Below are positions 3,441 to 26,784 of a DNA stretch of 32,843 bases, one piece after another. The DNA comes from an uncultured Candidatus Saccharibacteria bacterium. Lineage in GTDB: Bacteria; Patescibacteriota; Minisyncoccia; Phycocordibacterales; UBA5272. Made by a program: the position numbers and the translations under genes. The stretch covers positions 1-32,843 of the forward strand of contig CAYVMF010000001.1 in assembly GCA_964452605.1 (NCBI GenBank), in the 5' to 3' direction. Under the pieces are notes generated by a model. The model was not told where the DNA came from. It was given only the letters and a program-made list of their open reading frames with translations, and ran no database searches. Within the stretch, counting starts at the first letter, position 1, and each line of letters begins with the position of its first letter.

Positions 3441-4130
3441 TTATTTTCCACTTCTGAGGTACATCCTTTTTGAAGCTCTATCTACAGTGTACTCGGGATA
3501 TAGTTTTACCCACGCAGAGATGTCAGTCTCATCAAGCCCGTGAAATCCAAACTCGTTTGTCCACACACTTCCATATTTAACCGGCACAGGCTCTTTTAGA
3601 CACCCCTCAATACTGAACCTACTCGCAACATGTTCAGGGGCAAACACAACACCCTTTGCACGAAGATACTCTCCGTACGTCCGTGCGATATGGTGATCCT
3701 CTGGATGATGTTCTGTTATATATTCGTCATGATAGAGAATATGCAGTAATTTTTTACTACGCAGACTAAAACCTCCATTGCCAACATTGTTTTCGTCTTC
3801 GTACCACCAAGGTGCGCCGATGTAGTCATATGTGAGAAAGTCGTCTGTCCACGCTTCGTGATTTAAGATAAATCCATCGTACTGAATGACAAGCACGAAA
3901 TCTGTGTCTACATACTCATGTAGTTTTTTAATAAAGAAATGAGAGTATGTTTCAAGTGAGTCTACGTTATCTATACGTACCACCCGAGGATCTGCATCAG
4001 GAATAGACGAAAGCAATTTAACTGAGCCAAACTCAAAATGCTTCTGACAGATATCAGCAGCTAATTTCAAACGTTCTACATCAAGGCACTCCAAGCCAAG
4101 AAGTGTAACAGTAGGCAAACGCTTCTTCAT
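3441..4130 (-). CDS. DUF5672-like protein (putative glycosyltransferase-like fold)
   Basis: 229-aa ORF. The segment VLVIQYDGFILNHEAWTDDFLTYDYIGAPWW...GNGGFSLRSKKLL matches my recollection of the DUF5672 signature. TGaTATAAT lies 9 nt upstream of the ATG. Confidence 0.6.
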   Translation of the reverse strand: MKKRLPTVTLLGLECLDVERLKLAADICQKHFEFGSVKLLSSIPDADPRVVRIDNVDSLETYSHFFIKKLHEYVDTDFVLVIQYDGFILNHEAWTDDFLTYDYIGAPWWYEDENNVGNGGFSLRSKKLLHILYHDEYITEHHPEDHHIARTYGEYLRAKGVVFAPEHVASRFSIEGCLKEPVPVKYGSVWTNEFGFHGLDETDISAWVKLYPEYTVDRASKRMYLRSGK

Positions 4131-4233: not shown

Positions 4234-4896
4234 ATGCATAGAAAAATAGTTTCTATCCTAGTTGCAAGCCTATTTGCAACAGGTGTCGCCTCCGCTCAAG
4301 AGGTAGGTGTTACCACAAATGTAAATACTAACGCAGCCCTTGGCGTCGCTAAAGTAAATGTGGAAGCAACAACAACCGTTACTACAAATACTCGTGGGAA
4401 CGCCACTTCATCCGCTAAAAAAGATAACGAGGCAAAGACCACTAAAGCTGAAACGACGTCCGTAACCACTGAAAGCAAGCGCTCGTCAACGGGAGAGGCT
4501 CACATGAGTGCTGTTGCTGTATTCGTACAGTCACTCCTTAGCATCGCTAACCGTGAAGGTGGAATCGGCACACAGGTACGTGCGGTAGCACAGGCGCAAA
4601 ATGACACTGCAAGCACAACAGCGGCGGCAATTACCGCTATCGAAGCACGTGGCAAACTCCGTACGTTTCTTTTTGGCACAGACTATAAAAGTATCGGACA
4701 GCTACGAAGTGATGTTACCGTTACTGAAAATAGTATCGCCCAACTAAAAGCAGTACTAGATAAAGCGCTAAGTGTAACCACCAAAGCAGAGCTCACCACT
4801 CAACTAAAAGCACTCGAAGACACACAAGTGAAACTAAACGCCTATATCAAGGCAAATGAAAGTAGTTTCAGTCTCTTCGGTTGGTTAAACAAATAA
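4234..4896 (+). CDS. Secreted Thr/Ala-rich protein with C-terminal coiled coil, unknown function
   Basis: 220-aa ORF. Signal peptide MHRKIVSILVASLFATGVASAQ, a low-complexity T/A/N-rich N-terminal half and a helical C-terminal half. A strong terminator follows. Confidence 0.6.
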   Translation: MHRKIVSILVASLFATGVASAQEVGVTTNVNTNAALGVAKVNVEATTTVTTNTRGNATSSAKKDNEAKTTKAETTSVTTESKRSSTGEAHMSAVAVFVQSLLSIANREGGIGTQVRAVAQAQNDTASTTAAAITAIEARGKLRTFLFGTDYKSIGQLRSDVTVTENSIAQLKAVLDKALSVTTKAELTTQLKALEDTQVKLNAYIKANESSFSLFGWLNK

Positions 4897-4900
4897 CTTT

Positions 4901-4942
4901 CCTAACTAAAAAACCGGGTAGCTACCCGGTTTTTTAGTTAGG
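4901..4942. terminator. Bidirectional intrinsic terminator between convergent genes
   Basis: Perfect 20-nt inverted arms, CCTAACTAAAAAACCGGGTA / TACCCGGTTTTTTAGTTAGG, separated by 2 nt. GC core with an A-tract on one side and a T-tract on the other. Confidence 0.85.
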
Positions 4943-4960
4943 AAAACTGTCTTCTAATAG

Positions 4961-5422
4961 TTACATTCCCTCAAATGCACTGATATCAATCTTCTTCATC
5001 TGAAGCAACTTCTCCCACGCACCGGGCTTTAGCATCATTGCTTCTATATTTTCAGGATTGATTTGCCATGAAAGACCGTACTTATCCTTGCACCAGCCAC
5101 AGACACTTTCACTACCACCATCTTTAGTAAGCTTGTCCCAATAGTAGTCGATCTCTGCTTGGTCCTTGCAAGAAATATTAAATGACACTGCTTCATTAAA
5201 AGTAAATTCATTACCGGCGTTAATGGCAACAAATTCTTCACCCATAAGCTCAAAATAAATAGCAAGCACTTTACCAGCAAATGGTGCCTGGAAATCAAGT
5301 AGCCCTTCTGTTGGATAGTATGAAGTTGTAATAATTTTCCCGTCCGGAAAAACAGAGAGATAAAAATTGACTGCCTCTTCTGCGTTCCCCTTGAACCATA
5401 AATTAGGTGTTATTTTCTGCAT
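4961..5422 (-). CDS. VOC/glyoxalase-superfamily protein, PhnB-like (3-demethylubiquinone-9 3-methyltransferase-domain family)
   Basis: 153-aa ORF. MQKITPNLWFKGNAEEAVNFYLSVFP...CGWCKDKYGLSWQI matches the characteristic N- and C-terminal motifs of this family. Confidence 0.8.
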   Translation of the reverse strand: MQKITPNLWFKGNAEEAVNFYLSVFPDGKIITTSYYPTEGLLDFQAPFAGKVLAIYFELMGEEFVAINAGNEFTFNEAVSFNISCKDQAEIDYYWDKLTKDGGSESVCGWCKDKYGLSWQINPENIEAMMLKPGAWEKLLQMKKIDISAFEGM

Positions 5423-5908: not shown

Positions 5909-6033
5909 GTGGTAAGTGTATCATCTGAAACCTTTTACATTCTTTTCCCCTATATCAAAACCAACAAGAACTCCAATACAAAACCCGATAAAAAGGCAGC
6001 ATAGCCCGGTGATTATATAAAACATAGATTTGT

Positions 6034-6165
6034 CTGTTGAGGACTTTTGATAATGACTAGAAACAAAAAGCTCCTAGCCAGCGGTTCCTTGCGGAACCTA
6101 CACAGGTTTCCCTGCATAGCCTCAACAGCACTCTGACTAGGAGTTTTTTACTGTTGAGGGCTTTT
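6034..6165 (-). ncRNA. Candidate structured RNA or cis-regulatory element: three-way junction with two GNRA-capped hairpins, closed by a long stem with a U-run and flanked by 15-nt repeats
   Basis: Read on the minus strand. P1 is CUCCUAGUCAG/CUGGCUAGGAG (6071-6081 with 6133-6143). P2 is CUAUGCAGG-GAAA-CCUGUGUAG. P3 is GGUUCC-GCAA-GGAACC. A U-run (CUUUUUGUUU) follows. The junction strand CUGUUGAGG (6128-6120) is complementary to both flanking copies of CCUCAACAG (plus-strand ctgttgagg at 6034-6042 and 6151-6159). The strand call rests only on the GNRA loops. Confidence 0.3.
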
Positions 6166-6169
6166 CGCC

Positions 6170-6328
6170 ATGCCAGTACTACTACTTGGTTTAGGCTACT
6201 TTCTACAATATTCAGTTGTTGTACAATTATACCTCTTTTTTGAAGCTTGGAGAACTACTTATCGTACTCATCTTACGAGGTGGAGTCAAAATGATGTTAT
6301 GACTTTTTTCAGAAAAGGTGTAGAGTAA
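6170..6328 (+). CDS. Possible 52-aa membrane peptide ORF upstream of the GC-rich gene at 6359
   Basis: Hand translation gives MPVLLLGLGYFLQYSVVVQLYLFFEAWRTTYRTHLTRWSQNDVMTFFRKGVE*. Hydrophobic N-terminus, basic tail. I saw no clear promoter or SD. It ends 30 nt before the next ATG. Confidence 0.2.
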   Translation: MPVLLLGLGYFLQYSVVVQLYLFFEAWRTTYRTHLTRWSQNDVMTFFRKGVE

Positions 6329-6358: not shown

Positions 6359-6676
6359 ATGGGAATCCTAACGTTTGTTAAGAAGTTGTTTACGCCTTCT
6401 CCGGAAACGCTCCGGCTACAGCAACAGAACGCCGACGAAGAGCTCAAGGGGAAAATCCTCTTGGTACTGGAAGACCCCTACTGTGCCACTTACCGCGGCG
6501 GGATCGTGCCTTTTGAGGTCATTCGCCATCAGCTGAGAGCGTGGCCGCTCGAGCAGATCCTTCGCATGATGAAGGAGCTCATCACGGCACGCCTCGTCCA
6601 AAGAATTGACGGCGGCAAGAGTGAAAAACCTGCCACCGAAGTTCAGTACGTCAGTTCTGCCTCCAGGCGCGACTAA
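6359..6676 (+). CDS. GC-rich orphan protein (105 aa), possibly winged-helix-like
   Basis: GGAG lies 8 nt upstream of the ATG, unlike native genes. GC is clearly above the neighbours. The central pattern KILLVLEDP....IVPFEVIRHQL..WPLEQILRMMKELITARLVQRI resembles a wHTH recognition module. Its own terminator follows. Confidence 0.6.
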   Translation: MGILTFVKKLFTPSPETLRLQQQNADEELKGKILLVLEDPYCATYRGGIVPFEVIRHQLRAWPLEQILRMMKELITARLVQRIDGGKSEKPATEVQYVSSASRRD

Positions 6677-7173: not shown

Positions 7174-8220
7174 TTATTTTTTGACTGCACTTATTAAGTT
7201 GGCAATGTCAGTAATAGAGACCTCTTTCTGGTTACCCTGGAGGTACCCATCATCTTGATGTGCAAATATAGTTTGAGCTATTTCTTTAACAATTGCATCT
7301 CTGTTTTCTGGCAGCTTATTATTTCTCACTAAAATATCAAAAGATTTTAGTGAGTTACTTCTATGAGTATTTAAATTATACATATGCAGGTTTGCATTGT
7401 AATTCTTTAAAACTTCTCTTATCAGAACGTATAAGAAAAATAGTACTGAGAAGCGAATAAGAAATGCAAAAATATAGTATTCCCAGTCCGCTACAGGCTC
7501 TGGTTGATTAATTTCTTTTAAGAGGGGTAAAAACCAGTAAACAAGAATCCATATACCAGCCCCAATTAAAATTAGAAACATAACACCAAAAAGTCTTGAT
7601 AGATTTCTATTTTTGACTGATTGATCTAAAAAAATAGTCCCATACTCGCTGACAGTGTCCACCAATGAAAAATCTTGGACCGACCTATTTAATTGTTCTA
7701 TATTATCTTTTACTTGAAGAATTTGTGTTAGGCCTTGGTTTAATTCACCCAATTTTTGGTCCACTTCTCCGACTTTTTGCTGAAAAGAACTCTGCGCATT
7801 ATTTACAACTTCTTGTGTTTGGTTTTTGTAGGTACTTAATGCTTCTTCTATTTTTTGTTTATGCTCCTCTCTAACGTACATCTGAAATTCAGAAATTTTT
7901 GGAGCTGTTACTGTATAAAAATCCCTTATCTCTTGGAGCAAGGCGTTGGCACGGAACTGCGTCTGTTCAACTGTCTCTCCCGTCTGTGTATTGAAAGACT
8001 GAGCCCTTGATTTTAAATCAATCAATTGAGAAAAAATTGCTTGCAGTTTTCCGGCATCTGTTGGAATAAATAAATGTATATTGTTCTCAAATTCTAATAC
8101 CAACTTACTTAGTCGTTGCAGCAAAGATGATATCTCTTCAAAAGAAGAGCTGTAGTTGCTGCCTAAATCAGTTCTTTTAAGACTTTCCCAATTAAGACTC
8201 TTAAGTGTATTAAAATCCAT
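7174..8220 (-). CDS. AT-rich island protein 1: N-terminal coiled coil (about 200 aa), 2 TM helices and a C-terminal helical domain
   Basis: 348-aa ORF, visibly more AT-rich than neighbours. TM helices LFGVMFLILIGAGIWILVYWFL and YYIFAFLIRFSVLFFLYVLI. AGAGTAGAAT lies 7 nt upstream of the ATG. The architecture recalls 2-TM effector modules (e.g. SLATT-like), but I cannot verify any family. Confidence 0.65.
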   Translation of the reverse strand: MDFNTLKSLNWESLKRTDLGSNYSSSFEEISSLLQRLSKLVLEFENNIHLFIPTDAGKLQAIFSQLIDLKSRAQSFNTQTGETVEQTQFRANALLQEIRDFYTVTAPKISEFQMYVREEHKQKIEEALSTYKNQTQEVVNNAQSSFQQKVGEVDQKLGELNQGLTQILQVKDNIEQLNRSVQDFSLVDTVSEYGTIFLDQSVKNRNLSRLFGVMFLILIGAGIWILVYWFLPLLKEINQPEPVADWEYYIFAFLIRFSVLFFLYVLIREVLKNYNANLHMYNLNTHRSNSLKSFDILVRNNKLPENRDAIVKEIAQTIFAHQDDGYLQGNQKEVSITDIANLISAVKK

Positions 8221-12525: not shown

Positions 12526-12603
12526 GATTATGCAGTATATCAGGCGGAATTAAGTACAGCTGTTGATAGTAGAACGATTGTTCTTATTTTTTTATTTTTC
12601 GTA

Positions 12604-12612
12604 TGCTAGAAT
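12604..12612 (+). promoter_or_regulatory. Extended -10 promoter (TGcTAGAAT) for the GC-rich gene at 12647
   Basis: TGCTAGAAT lies 34 nt upstream of the ATG. The leader contains AAGGCAAGG as an SD-like element. Confidence 0.45.
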
Positions 12613-12646
12613 GACGCTTGAAAGTAACAACTTGAAAGGCAAGGCC

Positions 12647-13090
12647 ATGGAAACACTTGATTCTTACGCGACGGAGCGGCGGGAGAGAAAGGGTCTTCTT
12701 TTCCACTCCCCCTGCGCCACCTGTGGCTGTTGCATCGACGACCACATCGAACCGGACCGGTACGGCATTACCGATGAAGTAGCGAAACTGATGGGGAACG
12801 GAAGATGTTCTCTGTTTTCCTGCAAAGGGTTCAAGGTGCGTAAAAGCGACTTGAAACACATCGTGTACGTGTGCGCTCGGCGACTTTTCTTTGGCGAGCG
12901 GCAGGCGGAAGATTTCTGGGAGCACCCAGGTGTCAAAGAAGCCGCGCAAAAGCTTCTAGAAGAGAAGCTAGCTGAGTGGGAAGAAACCGAAAGCAAAGTT
13001 AACAAGTGGTGCGCCAATTACGGCTCAGTCATGATGATCGGTCTCACACGTGATGGCAGATCAGTAGCATTTAATATTGGGACAGCGTAA
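12647..13090 (+). CDS. GC-rich orphan Cys-rich (putative zinc-binding) protein, 147 aa
   Basis: I prefer the ATG at 12647 (SD-like AAGG upstream) over the track's TTG at 12563. Cys cluster CATCGCCIDDH...CSLFSCKGF. Acidic helical segment KLLEEKLAEWEETESK. GC is clearly above the flanks. Terminator follows. Confidence 0.6.
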   Translation: METLDSYATERRERKGLLFHSPCATCGCCIDDHIEPDRYGITDEVAKLMGNGRCSLFSCKGFKVRKSDLKHIVYVCARRLFFGERQAEDFWEHPGVKEAAQKLLEEKLAEWEETESKVNKWCANYGSVMMIGLTRDGRSVAFNIGTA

Positions 13091-20020: not shown

Positions 20021-21958
20021 CTATCTAGTAACACACGCTCCCCAAAGTCCTGGGTTTGCGTTATCACATCCACCACCTACCGTACATGTGGCAACCTGAG
20101 AACCATATGTACTTGCGATACTAGCATTACACGCAGCTTCACCCATACCGTTTACGAAATTACGCGTAACAGGATTCGTTACTGTAAGCTGAGTAACCCC
20201 TGACCACACACTACACCCAACAACGTTACATGCTTGTACAGAAATAAGGTGCACACCCGCTGTTAAACCAAGAGAGGCTGGTGTGCCAGTCCATGTCGTA
20301 TTCGTCCCTTGAGGTAGTTCTGTACTATTAAGTCTAATTGTGTATCTTGTTGGTCCGTTATTTCCTGACCATGAAGCAGAGAAGTTTTCTGATGTAGACA
20401 CAGTCGTTTGACTAAGTGTTAACTGTGCAGTTGTTGGCGGTGTCTGACTTACAGTTGGAGTCTGAGTAGACTGACTTGTAGACTGAGCACTTGAATCAAC
20501 ACAAGCTCCCCAACTATATGGATTCGCAGAGGCACAGCTAGCCCCTGGTCGACCGCACGCCACTCCACAACCTCCACCCATACTACAAGTCGCGACTTGA
20601 GAACCGAAACGGCTCACAATATCTGCGTTACAAGCAGCTTGTCCGGCACCGTTTACGAAGTTGAAAAGAGAAGTTGATTGTGTACCATCGGTAACACTAA
20701 TAGTTTTTTCTGCAGAACCTGTTCCTGCACCATTAGTACACTCGACTCTATATACAGTAGTGATTGTTGGAGCAACCACTCGTCCATCTGTCCCAAGCAC
20801 AACCTCACTACCGCCTGTGCGGAGATTACGTGCAATACAGCTTGTAGGACTGTTTGTAGTAGACCAGGTAATTGTCGTTGACTGTCCGGATGAAATGATC
20901 ATCGGACTTGCTGTGATAGAAATTACCGGAAGTGATACAGTAGCAGTACTTACTGTAATTGTTTTGTCTGCAAAACCAGTCCCTGATGCGTTTGAACATT
21001 CAATTCTGTATGTAGTCGTCTGAGTTGGAGCAACCACTCGTCCGTCTGTTCCAAGCACCGTCTCACTTCCGCCTGTGCGGAGATTACGCGCAATACAACT
21101 TGTAGGAGTGTTTGTACTAGACCAGGTAATCGTAACTGATTGACCACTAGTAGTAACTTCGCGATCTGCGATGACGGTAAGTACCGGTGCACTACCTGTG
21201 GTTGTAGTAGATGTTCTGTTTACAGGGAAAGTACCAGTTTCAGCAATAACTTGTCCGCTGCTGTTGAGAATACGAATACGATATGTACCATTTGCTATGT
21301 CGTTCCCAAGCGTAATAGTAAACGTATTTGACCCAGCAGAGAGTGCTGCAGTTTGAGACATTTGCTGACTCGTACCCACGTTAAAGATTGTGAGAGTTGT
21401 ACCAGAAGGAATATTTGAATACTGTCCACTTAGACTGTTCGAAGAAAGATTCGTAATGTATACCGAACCCGTGCTAGATGTACCTCCAGTTGTCGGACAT
21501 ACGAACTGACAATTCGGTCCTGTACGCCCAACAGATGTTCCGTTAGGACAAATCATCGCATCCTGAGTACACATAACTCCAGAACCACCACCTGATACAC
21601 CGCCAGCACATACACGTGCAATAGCAGCGCGTGTCATAGAACCTGCGATACCAAATGTAGGAAGGGATTGATCTCTCTGGAAATCAATAACTGCCTGAAC
21701 AGTCATCCCAGCATAACGCCCAGTCGGCTGCTCGATATCAAGATAGCTACGCTCAATGAGGAAACGCTGTAGCTGAGATACCTGTCCGCTCGTAGACGCG
21801 TCAGTTGATCCACGCTGCATGGTAATAGAGAGCGATGGACAGTAGCCCGCTCGTGCTACTGATGTTCCTGTTCCGTAGTCGTCTGCAAGTTGTGCAGAAG
21901 CGTACACCACTGAAGCTAGTATAAGTCCAACTGAAATAATTCCTTTTAATTTGTTCAT
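20021..21958 (-). CDS. Secreted multidomain cell-surface protein: PG-binding domain, Ig-like repeats and two copies of a Cys-rich module
   Basis: 645-aa ORF with a signal peptide. PG_binding_1-like segment LQRFLIERSYL...AVIDFQRDQSLPTFGIAG. Two 86-aa tandem repeats. Two copies of the Cys-rich module FVNG.G.AACNA.I.S..GSQVATC..GGGC...NP..WGACV. Confidence 0.75.
   Translation of the reverse strand: MNKLKGIISVGLILASVVYASAQLADDYGTGTSVARAGYCPSLSITMQRGSTDASTSGQVSQLQRFLIERSYLDIEQPTGRYAGMTVQAVIDFQRDQSLPTFGIAGSMTRAAIARVCAGGVSGGGSGVMCTQDAMICPNGTSVGRTGPNCQFVCPTTGGTSSTGSVYITNLSSNSLSGQYSNIPSGTTLTIFNVGTSQQMSQTAALSAGSNTFTITLGNDIANGTYRIRILNSSGQVIAETGTFPVNRTSTTTTGSAPVLTVIADREVTTSGQSVTITWSSTNTPTSCIARNLRTGGSETVLGTDGRVVAPTQTTTYRIECSNASGTGFADKTITVSTATVSLPVISITASPMIISSGQSTTITWSTTNSPTSCIARNLRTGGSEVVLGTDGRVVAPTITTVYRVECTNGAGTGSAEKTISVTDGTQSTSLFNFVNGAGQAACNADIVSRFGSQVATCSMGGGCGVACGRPGASCASANPYSWGACVDSSAQSTSQSTQTPTVSQTPPTTAQLTLSQTTVSTSENFSASWSGNNGPTRYTIRLNSTELPQGTNTTWTGTPASLGLTAGVHLISVQACNVVGCSVWSGVTQLTVTNPVTRNFVNGMGEAACNASIASTYGSQVATCTVGGGCDNANPGLWGACVTR
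20690..21190 (-). repeat. Tandem 258-nt (86-aa) intragenic repeat, 2 copies
   Basis: ccgcctgtgcggagattacg occurs at both 20811 and 21069, an offset of exactly 258 nt. By eye the core is about 90% identical at the nucleotide level. The protein copies share TITWS.TN.PTSCIARNLRTGGSE.VLGTDGRVVAPT. Confidence 0.85.
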
Positions 21959-22063: not shown

Positions 22064-22747
22064 TTACTTAGCTATCTTTTTCCCAATTATGTTTTCTTTT
22101 TTTGCTCGATATTCTTCAATCAACTTGTGATTTCCAGATAAAAGTACTTTAGGAACACGATACTTCTTTCCTTTGTATTCATACACTTCAGGTCGAGCAT
22201 ATATCTCATGAGATGCCATACGCTTCTCTTCAAGCGACAACTCGTCATTTAAAACACCTTTGATCTGTCTTGAAATAGCATCTATACACACCATCGCAGG
22301 AAGTTCTCCACCTGTAAGAACATAGTTCCCAATACTCCATTCTTTTGCTTTAAGGATTTTCCTTACACGTTCATCAATCCCCTCGTAACGGCCACAAATG
22401 AAAATAACATCTGTATACTTCTTTGCAACGTTCTGCGCAAGTGTGTTTGTAAATAGTTCGCCTCCAGCATTAAAAATAACCACAAGCGTTTTAGTATTCT
22501 TTCTCTTGTCGATTTTCTTCTGTACCTTCTCGACACACTTAATGAGTGGATCAACCCACATCACCATGCCAGGACCTCCGCCATATGGGCGACCATCAAC
22601 GCGACGATGTTTATCGGTTGTGTAGTCTCGAAGTGCGTAGGTATTAATTTCTATTAACTTTCCTTCAATTGCACGCGAAATAATAGACTCAGCAAAATAT
22701 GAGTCAAACATCCCCGGGAAAATAGTTACGATATGGTAACGAATCAT
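22064..22747 (-). CDS. trmD: tRNA (guanine37-N1)-methyltransferase TrmD
   Basis: 227-aa ORF. The pattern IVTIFP.MF...........I......L.I....LRDYT.DKHR.VDG.PYGGG.GMV, then GRYEGIDER and SIGNYVLTGGELPA. Confidence 0.9.
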   Translation of the reverse strand: MIRYHIVTIFPGMFDSYFAESIISRAIEGKLIEINTYALRDYTTDKHRRVDGRPYGGGPGMVMWVDPLIKCVEKVQKKIDKRKNTKTLVVIFNAGGELFTNTLAQNVAKKYTDVIFICGRYEGIDERVRKILKAKEWSIGNYVLTGGELPAMVCIDAISRQIKGVLNDELSLEEKRMASHEIYARPEVYEYKGKKYRVPKVLLSGNHKLIEEYRAKKENIIGKKIAK

Positions 22748-22777
22748 GATACTTGACAGTATATCAAATATAATGTC

Positions 22778-22811
22778 AAAAGAAAAGCCGCTCCAGAGCG
22801 GCTTTTCTTTT
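22778..22811. terminator. Intrinsic terminator/attenuator between the KH gene and trmD
   Basis: AAAAGAAAAGCCGCT-CCAG-AGCGGCTTTTCTTTT: 15-nt perfect arms. Confidence 0.8.
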
Positions 22812-22823
22812 TAGACTATTTTA

Positions 22824-23141
22824 TTACAGAGACTTCAAGTCATTCATGACGGCATCTACATCTGTAGTGTCGTAAGTAGCTGGAGTATATCCTTCTCGGC
22901 CCGCTGGTTCGTTTATTTTCAAATTAACACGTGCGTTATTTTTCATTCCAACTACACGCAAAAGCGTACGGAGTGCTTTTGCTGTCGCCCCGTCGCGACC
23001 AATGATTTTACCCATATCTTCCCCTGCAACATCAAGAGTGATCAATACGCCCATTTCGTCTACTCGTCGTTCAACTTTTACTTGATCCGGATTATCTACT
23101 AATGCTTTAACAACATATTCAACAAATTCTTGGTCTTTCAT
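22824..23141 (-). CDS. KH-domain RNA-binding protein (KhpA/YlqC-like) with a C-terminal extension
   Basis: I prefer the ATG at 23141 (MKDQEFVEYVVKALVDNPDQVKVE...). GKIIGRDGATAKALRTLL is the KH GxxG motif. It holds the conserved position between rpsP and trmD. Confidence 0.8.
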   Translation of the reverse strand: MKDQEFVEYVVKALVDNPDQVKVERRVDEMGVLITLDVAGEDMGKIIGRDGATAKALRTLLRVVGMKNNARVNLKINEPAGREGYTPATYDTTDVDAVMNDLKSL

Positions 23142-23259
23142 ATTCTTTATGTATATCTTTATCGTAACAGTGATTTCGGTAATTTCTGGAAACTTATACA
23201 CAATCTAACACATGTATTGCCAAAAAGTAATACATCAACTAGAGCCCTTAACCACCCTT

Positions 23260-23303
23260 CACAAAACAAAAAAAGATGCTTTCGCATCTTTTTTTGTTTT
23301 GTG
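23260..23303. terminator. Weak-stem, long-arm palindrome between rpsP and the KH gene (attenuator/terminator)
   Basis: CACAAAACAAAAAAAGATGC-TTTC-GCATCTTTTTTTGTTTTGTG: 20-nt perfect arms, but only a 5-bp GC-containing core. Confidence 0.55.
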
Positions 23304-23312
23304 TAAATATAT

Positions 23313-23612
23313 TTACGCAGCTTTTTCTTCTTTCTTCTGTGGAGATTTCTTTGGAAGAACGTTTACTTTCTTTCCTTCGATAACACCCTTTGAAATAAGA
23401 AGGTTGTGTACTGTTGGTGTAATCTGAGCACCGACAGACATCCAGTGCTTCACGCGGTCAGCCTTAGCTTCGAAAATACCAGCCTTCACATTATATGTTC
23501 CAACGATCTCAGTGAACTGAGATGTCTTTGGCTTAAGTGTACTTTCGGTAACAATAAGACGGAAATGTGGGTCGTTCTTGCGTCCTGTACGTTGTAGTCT
23601 GATTTTTAACAT
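23313..23612 (-). CDS. rpsP: 30S ribosomal protein S16
   Basis: MLKIRLQRTGRKNDPHFRLIV... is the canonical bS16 N-terminus, here with a Lys-rich C-terminal tail. TGgTAGAAT (23620-23628) lies 7 nt upstream of the ATG. Confidence 0.92.
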   Translation of the reverse strand: MLKIRLQRTGRKNDPHFRLIVTESTLKPKTSQFTEIVGTYNVKAGIFEAKADRVKHWMSVGAQITPTVHNLLISKGVIEGKKVNVLPKKSPQKKEEKAA

Positions 23613-23644
23613 GTGCTGTATTCTACCATAAATCCTTTAAATAT

Positions 23645-23676
23645 GCAAAACAAAAGAGCCGACTACATGAGCCGGC
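23645..23676 (-). terminator. Intrinsic terminator of the GC-rich two-gene operon
   Basis: The minus strand reads GCCGGCT-CATGT-AGTCGGC followed by TCTTTTGTTTT. It ends about 20 nt before the rpsP -10 box. Confidence 0.7.
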
Positions 23677-23702
23677 CCTTTCTTTCCCCGTCCGGGAAAA
23701 AA

Positions 23703-24017
23703 TCACAGAACGGGAGAATGAAGCTGTTGGAGGATGAGGAACCCGCAAAGCAAGGTAAACCCCCACCCCCCTTGCCACAGCCTGGCAAACAGAGGACGCT
23801 TGCTGAACAGTCCGCCCAGCCACCCGATAACGCAGCTGGCGATACCCAACATGCCACCCAGAATGAAGAGGGTGTTCAAGTCCAGAGACTTGAACCGACC
23901 TAGTCCAAAGACGGCTGCGACCACCGCGATGGCAAGGATGAGTCCGGCTGCGAGCTGCCACGAGGGCTCAAACTTGAACATTTCTGCCAAGTCGATTTTG
24001 ATGCACCTGGGCTTCAT
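23703..24017 (-). CDS. GC-rich orphan small membrane protein 2 (104 aa, about 3 TM)
   Basis: This is the internal ATG at 24017 of the 204-aa track ORF. It overlaps the upstream stop as ATGA (24014-24017). Sequence MKPRCIKIDLAEMFKFEPSWQLAAGLILAIAVVAAVFGL...LFILGGMLGIASCVIGWLGGLF...GWGFTLLCGFLIL. The first 100 codons of the track ORF are Arg/Gly-rich out-of-frame-looking sequence. Confidence 0.6.
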   Translation of the reverse strand: MKPRCIKIDLAEMFKFEPSWQLAAGLILAIAVVAAVFGLGRFKSLDLNTLFILGGMLGIASCVIGWLGGLFSKRPLFARLWQGGWGFTLLCGFLILQQLHSPVL

Positions 24018-24310
24018 GGCCGCACCGGCGGCGTCAGGTTGCCGGACATCAGGTCGGGGTTGACGGCGCACATCAACAGCACGAGCCCCATGATGCTGAG
24101 GATTGCCCCAAAAAACTCGCAGAACTCCGCGAAGTTCTTTTCCTGGGCCTCCTCGAAACACGAATAGCGAGTTGTGTCGTAGACACCTTCCCTCAGGAGT
24201 ATCAACTCCCACGTCATTTTGACCACAGTGGACATAGTGAAACCGCCACACAGGACGGAACCCACACCCACCACCACCGTCGTGGCGACGTCCGGCACAA
24301 TGAAATTCAT
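24014..24310 (-). CDS. GC-rich orphan small membrane protein 1 (98 aa, 2 TM)
   Basis: GGAGG lies 7 nt upstream of the ATG. TM helices VATTVVVGVGSVLCGGFTM and FGAILSIMGLVLLMCAV flank an acidic, Cys-containing loop (YSCFEEAQEKNFAEFCEFF). Confidence 0.65.
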   Translation of the reverse strand: MNFIVPDVATTVVVGVGSVLCGGFTMSTVVKMTWELILLREGVYDTTRYSCFEEAQEKNFAEFCEFFGAILSIMGLVLLMCAVNPDLMSGNLTPPVRP

Positions 24311-24329
24311 GACACACCTCCAGTAAAAT

Positions 24330-24345
24330 GAGGGGAAATCCCCTC
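24330..24345 (-). promoter_or_regulatory. Palindrome/hairpin in the 5' leader of the GC-rich operon
   Basis: GAGGGG-AAAT-CCCCTC lies between the predicted transcription start site (TSS, about 24365) and the SD. It could be an operator or an RNA hairpin. Confidence 0.4.
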
Positions 24346-24364
24346 GGTTGTTAAAGAAAACTCC

Positions 24365-24401
24365 AGCCTTTATTATAACACATAATAAAGGCTTTTGTCA
24401 A
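24365..24401 (-). promoter_or_regulatory. Consensus sigma70 promoter (TTGACA-18-TATAAT) overlapping the rnr terminator hairpin
   Basis: The minus strand has TTGACA at 24401-24396 and TATAAT at 24377-24372. The -10 and spacer lie inside a perfect 12-bp-arm hairpin, AGCCTTTATTAT-GTGTT-ATAATAAAGGCT (24365-24393), which sits directly after the rnr stop. Confidence 0.6.
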
Positions 24402-24414
24402 GTATCCTTTCTTT

Positions 24415-26355
24415 CTAAGCAACTAAAGAATAGTCGATTACGCGCAGGTCTAGGTTAGCGTTTTTTACTTTTATTTTTACTGGTGTACCAATTTTCCATT
24501 CAGTCCCTGTTCTCTCCCCTATGATTCTTCCACCCTTCTGGTCAAAATTATAAAAGTCATCTCCCAAATCACGAAGTTTAATCATACCTTCACATTTACT
24601 TGTTTTTTCTTCAACGTACACACCCCATTCTGTTACCCCAGAAACCATACCTTCAAATTCCTGTCCGACACGGTATGACATGTACTCAACTTGTTTGTAT
24701 TTGATACTTCCACGCTCAGCATCTGAGGCTTCTTTTTCACGACGGCTCGCCTTCTGACAAAGTGATTCGTAGAGACCTCGCTCTTCTTCCTTTGGAAAAT
24801 CTTTATCCAGGATACGCATTAATAGTCTGTGCGTAAGCACATCCGGATAGCGACGAATTGGACTTGTGAAATGTGAGTAGTACTCAAACGCGAGACCGTA
24901 GTGACCAACGTTTTTAGTGCTGTACACCGCTTTTGCCATGGCACGAGTGATATGCACCTGAAGAAGCTGCTTCTCTGGGCGGTCTGCCATTTTTTCTAGA
25001 AGGTTATTTAAATCTTGTGAAGGAATGAGTCCGTCCATAAAACGCACAGTAAAACCAAGTCCACGGATATACAAATCCAAATCATGCATCTTGTCTGCGT
25101 CCGGCTTATCGTGAATACGATAAATACAAATACTCTTTCCTTCGCCTTGAGCTTTTTCTTGTTCTTGTGTGATAAATTTACTTACATACTTGTTCGCCAA
25201 GAGCATGTACTCTTCGATCATTTTGTTGGTATCGCCGCGCACTTTTATGTACACGTCAATTGGTACACCGTGCTCATCGAGCTTAAATTTAACTTCGTCT
25301 GTTTCAAGAGAGAGTGCGCCGTTTGCAAAACGTGCTTTGTTTAATTTCTTTGCGATGCCGTTTAAAATAGCGAGCTCTTCGTGAAAATCTCCAGCGCCAG
25401 TATCAAGGGTAACTTGAGCATCTTCGTATGAGTAACGACGCTGTGAGTTAATAACCGCGCGACCGTACCATTCATTGTGAACCACACCATCACTGTCCAG
25501 TTCAAGCACACATGACATCACGAGGCGGTCTTCACCCTGTACAAGAGAACAGAGGTCGTTAGAAAGTACCTCTGGAAGCATTGGAAGTACACGATCTACG
25601 AGATACACAGATGTCTCACGAGAGACAGCTTCGTCATCTAGTGCCATACCTGGTTTTACATAATACGACACATCTGCAATATGAATACCAACTTCGAAAC
25701 GTCCATTGTCTAACTTTTGGAAAGAAATAGCATCGTCAAAATCCTTTGCGTCGATTGGGTCAATCGTAAACGTAGTGATACCTCTAAAGTCTCGGCGTCC
25801 CGCCTTATCTTCTTCTGTGATACCTCGTGCCTTAATTGTATTTGCTTCTGCATTTACCGCTTCATCATGTTCATCACTAAAACCACGCTCAAACGCAAAC
25901 GCAAGCATTTCAGCATCGTTTTCTCCAGGGCGGCCGAGGATCGTCATCACATGACCTCGTGGTGATTTCTTGTGATCTGACCAATCTGTAATAGATGCAA
26001 TGATTTTCATTCCTGGCTCTGCACCGTTAAGATAATTATGGTCAATTAAAATATCCGTATACATGCGCTTATCCTGCGGTACCAGGAAGTACATTCCATT
26101 GTCTTCTTCAAGAACTCCTGCGTATCCTTTACGTCCACGTTCAATGATACGAATCACCTTTCCATAGAGTTCGTCTTCGCCTTTTGCGTTTTGTTTTTTA
26201 CCAAGGAGTTCTACCTCGACTGTGTCTTGGTGGAGCGCTGTGTGTAAATGGCTGTGGTCAACAAAAATAGCACCTTCGTGCTCAAGCTCTGCGACACGCA
26301 CGTACCCATCCTTTTTTGATGTGATACTAATAGTTCCTGTGTAGACTCTTTCCAT
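24415..26355 (-). CDS. rnr: Ribonuclease R (RNB-family 3'-5' exoribonuclease with a C-terminal S1 domain)
   Basis: RNB motifs (TIDPIDAKDFDDAIS, YLVDRVLPMLPE, FTSPIRRYPD) and a C-terminal S1-like segment (GMVSGVTEWGVYVEE). I prefer the ATG at 26355 because TGcTATAGT lies 10 nt upstream of it. The track GTG at 26367 lies inside that -10. Confidence 0.9.
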   Translation of the reverse strand: MERVYTGTISITSKKDGYVRVAELEHEGAIFVDHSHLHTALHQDTVEVELLGKKQNAKGEDELYGKVIRIIERGRKGYAGVLEEDNGMYFLVPQDKRMYTDILIDHNYLNGAEPGMKIIASITDWSDHKKSPRGHVMTILGRPGENDAEMLAFAFERGFSDEHDEAVNAEANTIKARGITEEDKAGRRDFRGITTFTIDPIDAKDFDDAISFQKLDNGRFEVGIHIADVSYYVKPGMALDDEAVSRETSVYLVDRVLPMLPEVLSNDLCSLVQGEDRLVMSCVLELDSDGVVHNEWYGRAVINSQRRYSYEDAQVTLDTGAGDFHEELAILNGIAKKLNKARFANGALSLETDEVKFKLDEHGVPIDVYIKVRGDTNKMIEEYMLLANKYVSKFITQEQEKAQGEGKSICIYRIHDKPDADKMHDLDLYIRGLGFTVRFMDGLIPSQDLNNLLEKMADRPEKQLLQVHITRAMAKAVYSTKNVGHYGLAFEYYSHFTSPIRRYPDVLTHRLLMRILDKDFPKEEERGLYESLCQKASRREKEASDAERGSIKYKQVEYMSYRVGQEFEGMVSGVTEWGVYVEEKTSKCEGMIKLRDLGDDFYNFDQKGGRIIGERTGTEWKIGTPVKIKVKNANLDLRVIDYSLVA

Positions 26356-26466
26356 AATTCCCTTCACTATAGCATATTTTGATAGCGCCGGGAAAAGTGA
26401 TAGTCTTAGCCATTAGAACAGTTCCTCTGTTCACGTTTTCGAACCACAACCAACCTGGGGAATCAC

Positions 26467-26784
26467 ATGATACACGTTTCCGTTCATATCAATTCGTCCA
26501 TCGACCTGAAGACAGGGAGAACGCTCCTGGCTTTAATCAAGACCTACTTTGACGAAGTGTCGCAAGAAGACGGGCGCCCCGGACCCAGTGAGATCCAGCA
26601 GACCGTACATGGTCCAGGAGACAACTTCGAAAGAGCGGTCTCAATCCGCATCCTGACAGACAACAGGAATTGGGTGCTGAGACGACACGGCCAAAGTTTC
26701 ATTGGCCGCATCATCAAAGAGCTGCCCCTCCTTAAAGGGCAGTTGAGTATGTGGATTGTCGAAGCAGATCACACCTTCGGCTAA
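26467..26784 (+). CDS. GC-rich orphan protein (105 aa), unknown function
   Basis: GGGGA lies 7 nt upstream of the ATG. GC is above the flanks. No TM segment and no motif I recognise. Its own terminator follows. Confidence 0.55.
   Translation: MIHVSVHINSSIDLKTGRTLLALIKTYFDEVSQEDGRPGPSEIQQTVHGPGDNFERAVSIRILTDNRNWVLRRHGQSFIGRIIKELPLLKGQLSMWIVEADHTFG

Follow-up and report, generated by a model that had tools for sequence, protein, structure and literature searches.

The immunity proteins of pore-forming colicins are about 100-180 aa long and have 3-4 transmembrane (TM) helices (3 for colicin E1, 4 for colicin A); they are expressed constitutively from their own promoters, their specificity resides in the TM helices, and their alleles are polymorphic between strains. 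Orphan immunity genes also exist, so a missing toxin neighbour leaves an immunity-like action possible. Phage proteins of superinfection exclusion that block injection, such as T4 Imm with its 2 TM helices, are likewise tiny and constitutive, and evolve fast in an arms race. The toxins of type I toxin-antitoxin systems have fewer than about 60 aa and one TM helix, and are accompanied by an overlapping antisense RNA with its own promoter. Here we place beside these systems an operon of two small open reading frames (ORFs), ORF1 and ORF2, found in a stretch of 32,843 nucleotides of contig CAYVMF010000001.1 from an uncultured bacterium of the Candidate Phyla Radiation (CPR), the whole of which we call the window. 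The two genes and their signals lie on the minus strand, set between rnr (RNase R) and rpsP (ribosomal protein S16). With moderate confidence, we describe the operon as a lineage-restricted, vertically inherited possession of a narrow Nomurabacteria-like (Paceibacteria) clade, encoding a small integral-membrane complex with a conserved 3-TM core, ORF2, and a swappable 2-TM partner, ORF1. The family is new, orphan and very small, and its general class is already known.

Word-indexed searches of 5.8 billion proteins returned 2 clusters for ORF1 and 3 for ORF2, the latter rising to 9 once the profile included a 29%-identical protein from the GTDB locus L007. An exhaustive HMMER profile search recovered 7 ORF2 representatives among 1.84 billion proteins, and the profile matches had expectation values (E) of 1e-9 to 1e-43. 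The ORF2 family is present in 1 of 80 related GTDB species, and one member is on deposit as the hypothetical protein HCC06461.1 of Candidatus Nomurabacteria. No member was found in a JGI metagenome scan with the ORF2 profile; among the matches listed for a metagenome scan with a degenerate promoter pattern were generic promoters and one further copy of an L094-type locus. The best GTDB matches of rnr itself (77-80% at the amino acid level) are metagenome-assembled genomes of the Paceibacterota/Nomurabacteria type, and every ORF2-family member with recoverable flanks sits between rnr and rpsP in a narrow Paceibacteria/Nomurabacteria clade. The window's ORF2 has all the features of the family: a length of about 96-104 aa, 3 TM helices, the motifs IAVTAAF-GF-GFKS, VGWL, SKxP and GW, a C-terminal (N/S)P(I/V)L, the rnr-rpsP site and the promoter TTGACA-18-TGnTATAAT. 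The identities of the ORF2 family and of rnr fall in step from lineage to lineage (for example, 98/72, 97/79, 91/50 and 86/32%), which indicates vertical inheritance together with very fast divergence.

What stands upstream of ORF2 varies between lineages both in number, from 0 to 2 genes, and in sequence (Table 1), and in the relatives each gene of the slot has its own start signal. The pair that had been described as tightly coupled does recur at the rnr-rpsP site of other genomes, with an ATGA overlap in the window and in L100 and a GTGA overlap in L001, and with gaps of 2-13 nt elsewhere; the pairing is not obligate, as ORF2 occurs with no, one or two different partners. BLASTP found no similarity between ORF1 and the upstream 2-TM proteins of other lineages, and hhalign aligned ORF1-type proteins across the loop, TM2 and an NPD motif with E = 0.0017 yet only 15% probability. 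These partners share a common plan and the motif h-N-P/T-D/A-h just past TM2, and homology among them is best regarded as unproven from such an alignment. A further small gene, D, lies between the ORF2 homologue and rpsP in relatives and is missing from the window. It encodes a small Cys-rich soluble protein of 82-138 aa (CxC...C...C) with no Pfam match. In L007, the sequence ahead of D contains a terminator-like hairpin and a -10-like element, so D may form a transcription unit of its own, and the sole cargo of the L009 slot (about 5932-6226) is a Cys-rich small ORF that resembles D by eye.

At the level of strains, the variation is concentrated on the pair. Between the window and L003, rnr is identical over 966 bases, as is the downstream DNA, yet the pair differs by 34 substitutions, 9 in ORF1 and 25 in ORF2, arranged in clustered blocks. 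L001 and L006 are near-identical over the last 45 nt of ORF1 and beyond, with 0-5 differences in each 60 nt, and about 50% different from just past the -10 element through most of ORF1; here the ORF1 body has been replaced between conserved arms. In L092, a window-type ORF1 and ORF2 N-terminus are joined to an L001-type ORF2 C-terminus, making ORF2 a recombinant. The same distribution is found in a sister lineage, where the rates of nonsynonymous change (dN) between L007 and L087 are 1.03 for A, 0.13 for C, 0.10 for D and 0.01 for rnr. In these comparisons, it is always the upstream partner that is hypervariable and ORF2 that is conserved. The backbone is mosaic as well: between the window (22064-26367) and L001, synonymous divergence (dS) is 0.75 in rnr and 0.03-0.06 in rpsP, the KH protein gene and trmD, which points to frequent homologous recombination in the population. 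A diversity-generating retroelement was considered as a source of this variation and rejected: a repeat search of the 32.8-kb window revealed no template repeat, and the variation includes wholesale replacement and synonymous changes and is not adenine-specific. No reverse transcriptase domain was found among the large ORFs scanned in the window, about a dozen ORFs at 1-10.8 kb lying outside that scan.

Comparison of the alleles indicates that both ORFs are coding. ORF2 is clearly under purifying selection, with dN/dS of 0.25-0.29 (0.27 against L001, 0.25 against L003) and a third-position excess among its substitutions against L001 (26/9/37 by codon position). ORF1 has a dN/dS of 0.24 between close alleles; between distant alleles, both TM helices reach 0.7-1.0 and a polar middle of 25 codons is unchanged. 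In all five allele types it is open and has a GGAGG site ahead of it, also in the 104-aa L006 allele, whose first two-thirds are unrelated, and its codon periodicity (GC content of 0.53/0.40/0.78 at positions 1/2/3) agrees with the ORF1 frame. For ORF1, AlphaFold2 predicts a two-helix hairpin (residues 7-40 and 46-83; mean predicted local distance difference test score, pLDDT, of 71) with a 30-residue polar loop and a C-terminal VNPDL motif, and for ORF2 three helices (18-41, 47-71 and 75-100; pLDDT 64). Hydropathy agrees in both cases, as it does with the 2-TM and roughly 3-TM proteins that had been read from the sequence. By the positive-inside rule, ORF2 would have its N-terminus inside and its C-terminus outside, and the ORF1 loop would be cytoplasmic.

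The operon is preceded by a promoter that matches the sigma-70 consensus at 12 of 12 positions and is the sole perfect TTGACA-N16-19-TATAAT in the 32.8-kb window, where 0.03 would be expected by chance; transcription is predicted to start near 24365. Its core, TTGACAA-N14-TG-N-TATAATA, is invariant across 9 aligned loci from 4 operon lineages, and rnr synonymous sites are saturated among the three lineages measured (window, L007 and L094; proportion of synonymous differences 0.71-0.76). The pattern was found solely in loci bearing the ORF2 family, so the promoter is part of the operon. These signals had been noticed in a preliminary description made from the letters of the DNA, which gave the perfect promoter, a leader of about 55 nt with a palindrome and then a GGAGG Shine-Dalgarno sequence, the ATGA overlap, the GC-richness of the pair and its placement between rnr and rpsP, and on all of these points we agree with it, apart from small adjustments of coordinates.

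Its readings of the hairpins fared less uniformly. The perfect hairpin that spans the promoter spacer and the -10 element begins 22 nt past the rnr stop and is stable (-19 kcal/mol, z-score (z) = -3.3), and it probably acts as the rnr terminator in RNA read from upstream, as had been suggested. It is confined to the sub-lineage of the window, where the rnr stop precedes the -35 element by 13 nt, and its 3' arm carries an uncompensated G-to-A change in L003-L005. The leader palindrome, in turn, had been likened to an operator. As a hairpin it is statistically unexceptional by itself (z = -0.1), and relatives carry other small GC-rich hairpins (GTGGC/GCCAC, TGGCA/TGCCA, GGGC/GCCC) at a comparable position to within about 10 nt, in most cases with a T-run after them. 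Such substitution speaks for an RNA stem and against a protein operator, which we reject; the stem may serve as an mRNA stabiliser or weak attenuator. At the other end, the pair has its own intrinsic terminator, kept in L001-L006 with changes in both stem and loop; it adjoins the rpsP promoter directly, and the gap of about 20 nt once given between the two does not exist. The rpsP promoter is invariant in sequence in L001-L006 and similar in L007 and L009. Because its -10 element ends so close to the start codon (Table 1), the rpsP mRNA appears to be leaderless. As a side observation, rnr itself probably starts at ATG 26355 (MERVY...), 10 nt past the extended -10 element TGcTATAGT, and the GTG 26367 chosen by the ORF tool is probably not its start. 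With the ATG 26355 start, rnr would be a second near-leaderless gene (window 26340-26370, minus strand).

Table 1. Coordinates of the operon, its signals and its flanking genes in the window, with slot contents (gene lengths in aa in brackets) and D gene positions in related loci.
Locus	Feature	Position	Strand	Details
Window	rnr	26367-24415	-	stop TAG 24417-24415
Window	promoter	24372..24401	-	sigma-70-type; -35 TTGACA 24401-24396; 18-nt spacer; TG 24380-24379; extended -10 TGT-TATAAT 24380-24372; -10 TATAAT 24377-24372
Window	promoter hairpin	24365..24393	-	arms AGCCTTTATTAT / ATAATAAAGGCT, perfect 12-13 bp, spanning promoter spacer and -10; then GGAGTTTTCTTT
Window	leader hairpin	24330..24345	-	GAGGGG-ATTT-CCCCTC, then ATTTTAC; inside 5' untranslated region of about 55 nt
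Window	Shine-Dalgarno GGAGG	24317..24321	-	6 nt 5' of ORF1 ATG; kept in all window-type alleles
Window	ORF1 (A)	24014..24310	-	98 aa, 2-TM
Window	ORF2 (C)	23703..24017	-	104 aa, 3-TM; start overlaps ORF1 stop as ATGA 24017-24014
Window	intrinsic terminator of pair	23652..23682	-	13-bp stem with 6 GC pairs, T-run; -26 kcal/mol, z = -3.1
Window	rpsP promoter	23620..23649	-	TTTGCA-18-TGgTAGAAT; -35 TTTGCA 23649-23644; -10 ends 7 nt 5' of rpsP ATG (23612); no Shine-Dalgarno sequence
Window	slot content			A(98) + C(104)
L006	slot content			A'(104) + C
L007 / L091	slot content			A(117) + B(99) + C(96) + D
L087	slot content			A'(118) + C + D
L089	slot content			C + D only
L094-96	slot content			A(65) + B(66) + C + D
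L100	slot content			A(122) + C + D
L007	D	7250-7504
L087	D	1921-2169
L089	D	1317-1571
L096	D	3449-3769
L100	D	1545-1856

The composition of the operon sets it apart from its surroundings. Each ORF has a GC content of 0.57 against about 0.42 for the genome, and GC content at third codon positions (GC3) is 0.78 in ORF1 and 0.71 in ORF2 against 0.30-0.40 in neighbouring genes. High GC3 is found in every operon lineage (0.67-0.84 against 0.34 in L007, 0.57-0.60 against 0.22-0.31 in L100, 0.41-0.47 against 0.28 in L094). An effect of the site was rejected, as the unrelated cargo that occupies the same rnr-rpsP slot in L009, L012, L014 and L018 is not GC-rich. High GC might be read as a sign of insertion; its persistence across lineages with saturated synonymous sites argues that the operon is not a recent foreign insert, and the operon is vertically inherited within its narrow clade. 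A link between recombination and GC content is documented in bacteria (PMC4450053). Because the alleles are visibly mosaic, we favour GC-biased gene conversion at a recombining locus as the most economical candidate for what keeps GC3 high; other possible causes are selection acting at the mRNA level and genetic exchange with a pool of higher GC content. Other small orphans of the window are also rich in GC3. One, a 105-aa ORF (26467-26784, plus strand; GC3 0.63), is found within the 474 nt that separate the SMC-like gene from rnr and runs antisense to the genes around it. Its L001 counterpart, which was not called as a gene, shows 77% identity, and Pfam has no match for the ORF. Two more, at 6359-6676 and 12563-13090 on the plus strand, have GC3 values of 0.67 and 0.56 and no Pfam match, and the second is Cys-rich. 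A GC-rich composition may be a general trait of the accessory genes of this genome.

What, then, could such a pair do? The models of function first offered for it were too specific. We propose that the extended -10 consensus promoter would drive the operon strongly and constitutively from about 24365, that the GGAGG site would initiate ORF1, and that ORF2 would be translated by termination-reinitiation at the ATGA overlap, so that the two proteins would be made together. The conserved sequences on both sides, the promoter on one and the last 45 nt of ORF1 with ORF2 on the other, could serve as homology arms; since they flank the ORF1 body, whole ORF1 variants could be exchanged between strains by homologous recombination. 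In the membrane, the two proteins may associate helix to helix, and their function may be one of envelope-level conflict, for instance making the cell immune to a membrane-acting toxin or keeping out phage or other foreign contact, with the specificity in the variable TM helices. By analogy, hypervariable TM helices, allele swapping and an apparently constitutive promoter make an immunity or exclusion role possible, and we tentatively regard it as the most likely class of function, falling short of an even chance. At its boldest, the proposal would be that of a new polymorphic membrane specificity system in CPR episymbionts: a chromosomally fixed, promoter-anchored slot in which a conserved 3-TM core is combined with an exchangeable 2-TM specificity subunit, shuffled by recombination through conserved arms, that sets strain-level immunity or recognition (of phages, membrane-acting toxins or the host cell), with the GC3 excess as the footprint of long-term GC-biased gene conversion. 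To this full version we give a small chance.

Several observations weigh against these proposals. The conflict or immunity function is argued by analogy, and no toxin, bacteriocin, phage or defence gene lies near the pair. Close relatives, with rnr 77-80% identical, do without the operon, which makes it dispensable; L089 does without any upstream partner, and the ORF2 of L006 is disrupted by a frameshift and an early stop codon, provided that the assembly is correct there. The mixed allele of L092 means that ORF1 and ORF2 do not strictly co-vary. AlphaFold2 confidence is modest for both proteins (pLDDT 64-71). Between distant alleles, ORF1 substitutions show no codon-position bias (15/18/14) at the dN/dS of 0.7-1.0, and relaxed constraint would explain the divergence of ORF1 as well as diversifying selection does.

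The last point leads to the main rival, that the two proteins are ordinary accessory subunits, weakly constrained structural or chaperone-like parts of an envelope machine whose variation reflects low constraint in TM helices and the high recombination of naturally competent CPR bacteria, with no conflict involved. We consider this a genuine yet somewhat doubtful possibility. It is in keeping with the abundance of unannotated families, many of them membrane proteins, in CPR/Parcubacteria (PMC6744442), with a backbone that is itself mosaic from rnr to trmD, with a dN/dS of ORF1 that is never clearly above 1, and with an invariant, constitutive-looking promoter amid housekeeping genes. However, close relatives manage without the operon, so it is not essential to any core machine; exchange of the whole ORF1 for unrelated sequence and a partner number of 0-2 would be unusual for a fixed structural subunit; and the contrast between identical rnr genes and 34 differences in the pair of the window and L003 makes the diversity specific to the locus.

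A membrane toxin with its antidote, in the manner of an addiction or abortive-infection module in which one protein depolarises the membrane and the co-translated partner neutralises it, is unlikely. Tight translational coupling, the small size and hydrophobicity of both proteins, and a locus that is strain-variable and dispensable would all suit such a module. However, L089 has ORF2 alone and other lineages have two upstream partners, so a stoichiometric logic is not conserved; PADLOC and the Pfam toxin families gave no match; the promoter looks strong and constitutive, with no antisense RNA or labile-partner feature evident; and the chromosomal position is fixed and vertically inherited. A type I toxin-antitoxin system was considered separately and rejected, the proteins having 98 and 104 aa and 2-3 TM helices, the best antisense promoter in the pair matching at only 9 of 12 positions, and Rfam giving no match.

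That the operon is a recently acquired foreign cassette in the rnr-rpsP spacer, be it a mobile element, an integron-like cassette or DNA from a GC-rich donor, is very unlikely and largely refuted. A GC3 of 0.71-0.78 against about 0.35 and the short rnr-rpsP gap of some relatives (83 nt in L016; the 153 nt of L013 span a masked N run) first suggest it. Against it, the family is always at the rnr-rpsP site and never found elsewhere, its divergence tracks that of rnr, and high GC3 across saturated lineages rules out a recent, unameliorated import. The repeat search of the window found no flanking direct or inverted repeats and no paralogue of the cassette. An integron or mobile cassette was rejected on its own account: the operon has its own promoter and a single site, and no attC-like site, integrase or transposase accompanies it.

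A holin/antiholin-like pair for lysis or export, possibly the remnant of a prophage lysis cassette, was among the first proposals and is now close to refuted. The sizes, the 2 and 3 TM helices and the single transcript are those of holins (class I with 3 TM, class II with 2 TM) and of holin/antiholin pairs, and the middle protein of L007 (B) has a sub-threshold match to Phage_holin_2_3 (E = 0.006, 17 bits against a cut-off of 28.8). However, no endolysin, spanin or other phage gene lies within 10 kb on either side, and PHROG matches are confined to noise. Profiles of both proteins found no relatives among IMG/VR viral contigs, nor did tblastn among 50,697 GenBank phage records. The pair also lacks a dual-start motif and the charged cytoplasmic C-terminal tail of holins: ORF2 ends in ...LILQQLHSPVL, 4 residues past TM3, and the ORF1 tail, NPDLMSGNLTPPVRP, has a net charge of 0. 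A strong constitutive promoter, moreover, is incompatible with a timed lethal function and would be lethal with a true holin.

The weakest alternative, that there are not two genes here, only a single 204-aa protein from GTG 24317 (a frame that the preliminary description had singled out, and one that is open in the window, L001 and L092) or a GC-rich non-coding stretch of the kind that yields long chance ORFs, is refuted by the comparative data. Stops interrupt the 204-aa frame in L003-L005 and in L006, and the L007, L087, L094 and L100 types do not have it at all. In L001 the antisense ORFs are broken up, and a permissive Rfam search over the region gave only noise. ORF2, for its part, is under purifying selection, and in relatives every gene starts from a signal of its own.

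The surroundings are those of a chromosomal backbone. ATP synthase genes, UppP and an SMC-like protein lie on one side, followed by rnr, the pair, rpsP, the KH protein and trmD; past trmD come genes for a peptidoglycan (PG)-binding protein, PGA_cap, MgsA, RF2, an M64/Big protein, FtsE, FtsX and Pif1. No phage, mobile-element or defence gene was found among the neighbours in the window. Three further features of the window were noted in passing. A LOOT RNA (Rfam RF03000; 78 bits against a gathering score of 46.4) lies at 6083-6197 on the minus strand, just 5' of the GC-rich ORF at 6359-6676. The gene at 20021-21958 (minus strand) encodes a 645-aa protein with a PG_binding_1 domain and an unusually high GC content at second codon positions (0.61), and contains a 213-nt internal direct repeat (20675-21145) with 77% identity and a spacing of 258. 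Lastly, a perfect palindrome with 24-nt arms and no spacer (4898-4945) lies between the convergent genes 4234-4896 (plus) and 4961-5422 (minus) and is probably a bidirectional terminator.

The genomes of CPR/Patescibacteria are small and full of unannotated membrane proteins that are thought to mediate episymbiotic life, almost none of which has been assigned a function. The rnr-rpsP operon is a compact and well-defined case, with a conserved core and a strain-swapped partner, and its invariant consensus promoter shows what a strong promoter of the clade looks like; the apparently leaderless rpsP next door provides a useful contrast in expression signals. The locus also serves as a natural experiment on whether GC-biased gene conversion is able to keep GC3 at 0.7-0.8 in a genome of about 0.35. 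Should the conflict reading hold, the operon would point to determinants of immunity or recognition that act at strain level in an uncultured group; should it fail, the operon would simply be another hypothetical membrane operon restricted to its lineage. The invariant promoter, the allele-swapping architecture and the persistent GC3 excess are the features that merit the attention of specialists.

Finally, we would like to place the operon in the context of known small membrane-protein systems. Searches of Pfam, PHROGs, PADLOC and NCBIfam with ORF1, ORF2 and the partner proteins of relatives gave nothing above noise, the PHROG matches having E values of at least 0.08 to families of unknown function, and neither a profile search of the PDB (best E 0.47) nor Foldseek of the ORF2 model against the PDB (best E 1.7) found a match. 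In small multidrug resistance (SMR) pairs of the EbrAB and YkkCD type, too, the genes adjoin or overlap and the products are membrane proteins some 100 aa long, which work as heterodimers. However, each SMR protein has 4 TM helices, the first with a conserved Glu embedded in the membrane, in contrast to the 2 + 3 helices of the pair; no charged residue lies inside any TM helix of either protein, and there is no match to PF00893 or any other Pfam family, so that the small transporter once proposed fits poorly. Superinfection-exclusion proteins resemble the pair as tiny, fast-evolving and constitutively expressed membrane proteins, but they are encoded by phages or prophages, and the pair has neither a phage context nor a homologue in PHROGs, IMG/VR or the GenBank phage records.

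Another architectural likeness is to the colicin immunity proteins, which share with the pair their small size, TM count, own promoter and strain-polymorphic TM helices. The pair differs from them in several ways: it has no sequence or fold match (Pfam, NCBIfam, PDB profile search, Foldseek), neither the window nor the 12-25-kb loci of relatives carry a gene for a colicin, lysis or export near it, and its locus is chromosomal and vertically inherited at a fixed site in a CPR bacterium. Its variable part, moreover, is a separate 2-TM protein, and its 3-TM protein is the more conserved of the two. As to the bacteriocin-immunity module that had been suggested, the pair has no bacteriocin, toxin or export gene nearby and matches no immunity family, and an immunity-like role is possible only by analogy. 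Within its own group of organisms, the operon can be set beside the CPR/Parcubacteria-specific families, which are mostly unannotated and include many membrane proteins (Meheust et al. 2019, PMC6744442). The ORF2 family is far narrower than these, at about the genus level, and is tied to one site and its own invariant promoter, and the allele replacement and persistent GC3 excess of the operon are features not described there; with them it shares the organisms, the membrane location, the restriction to a clade and the lack of annotation.

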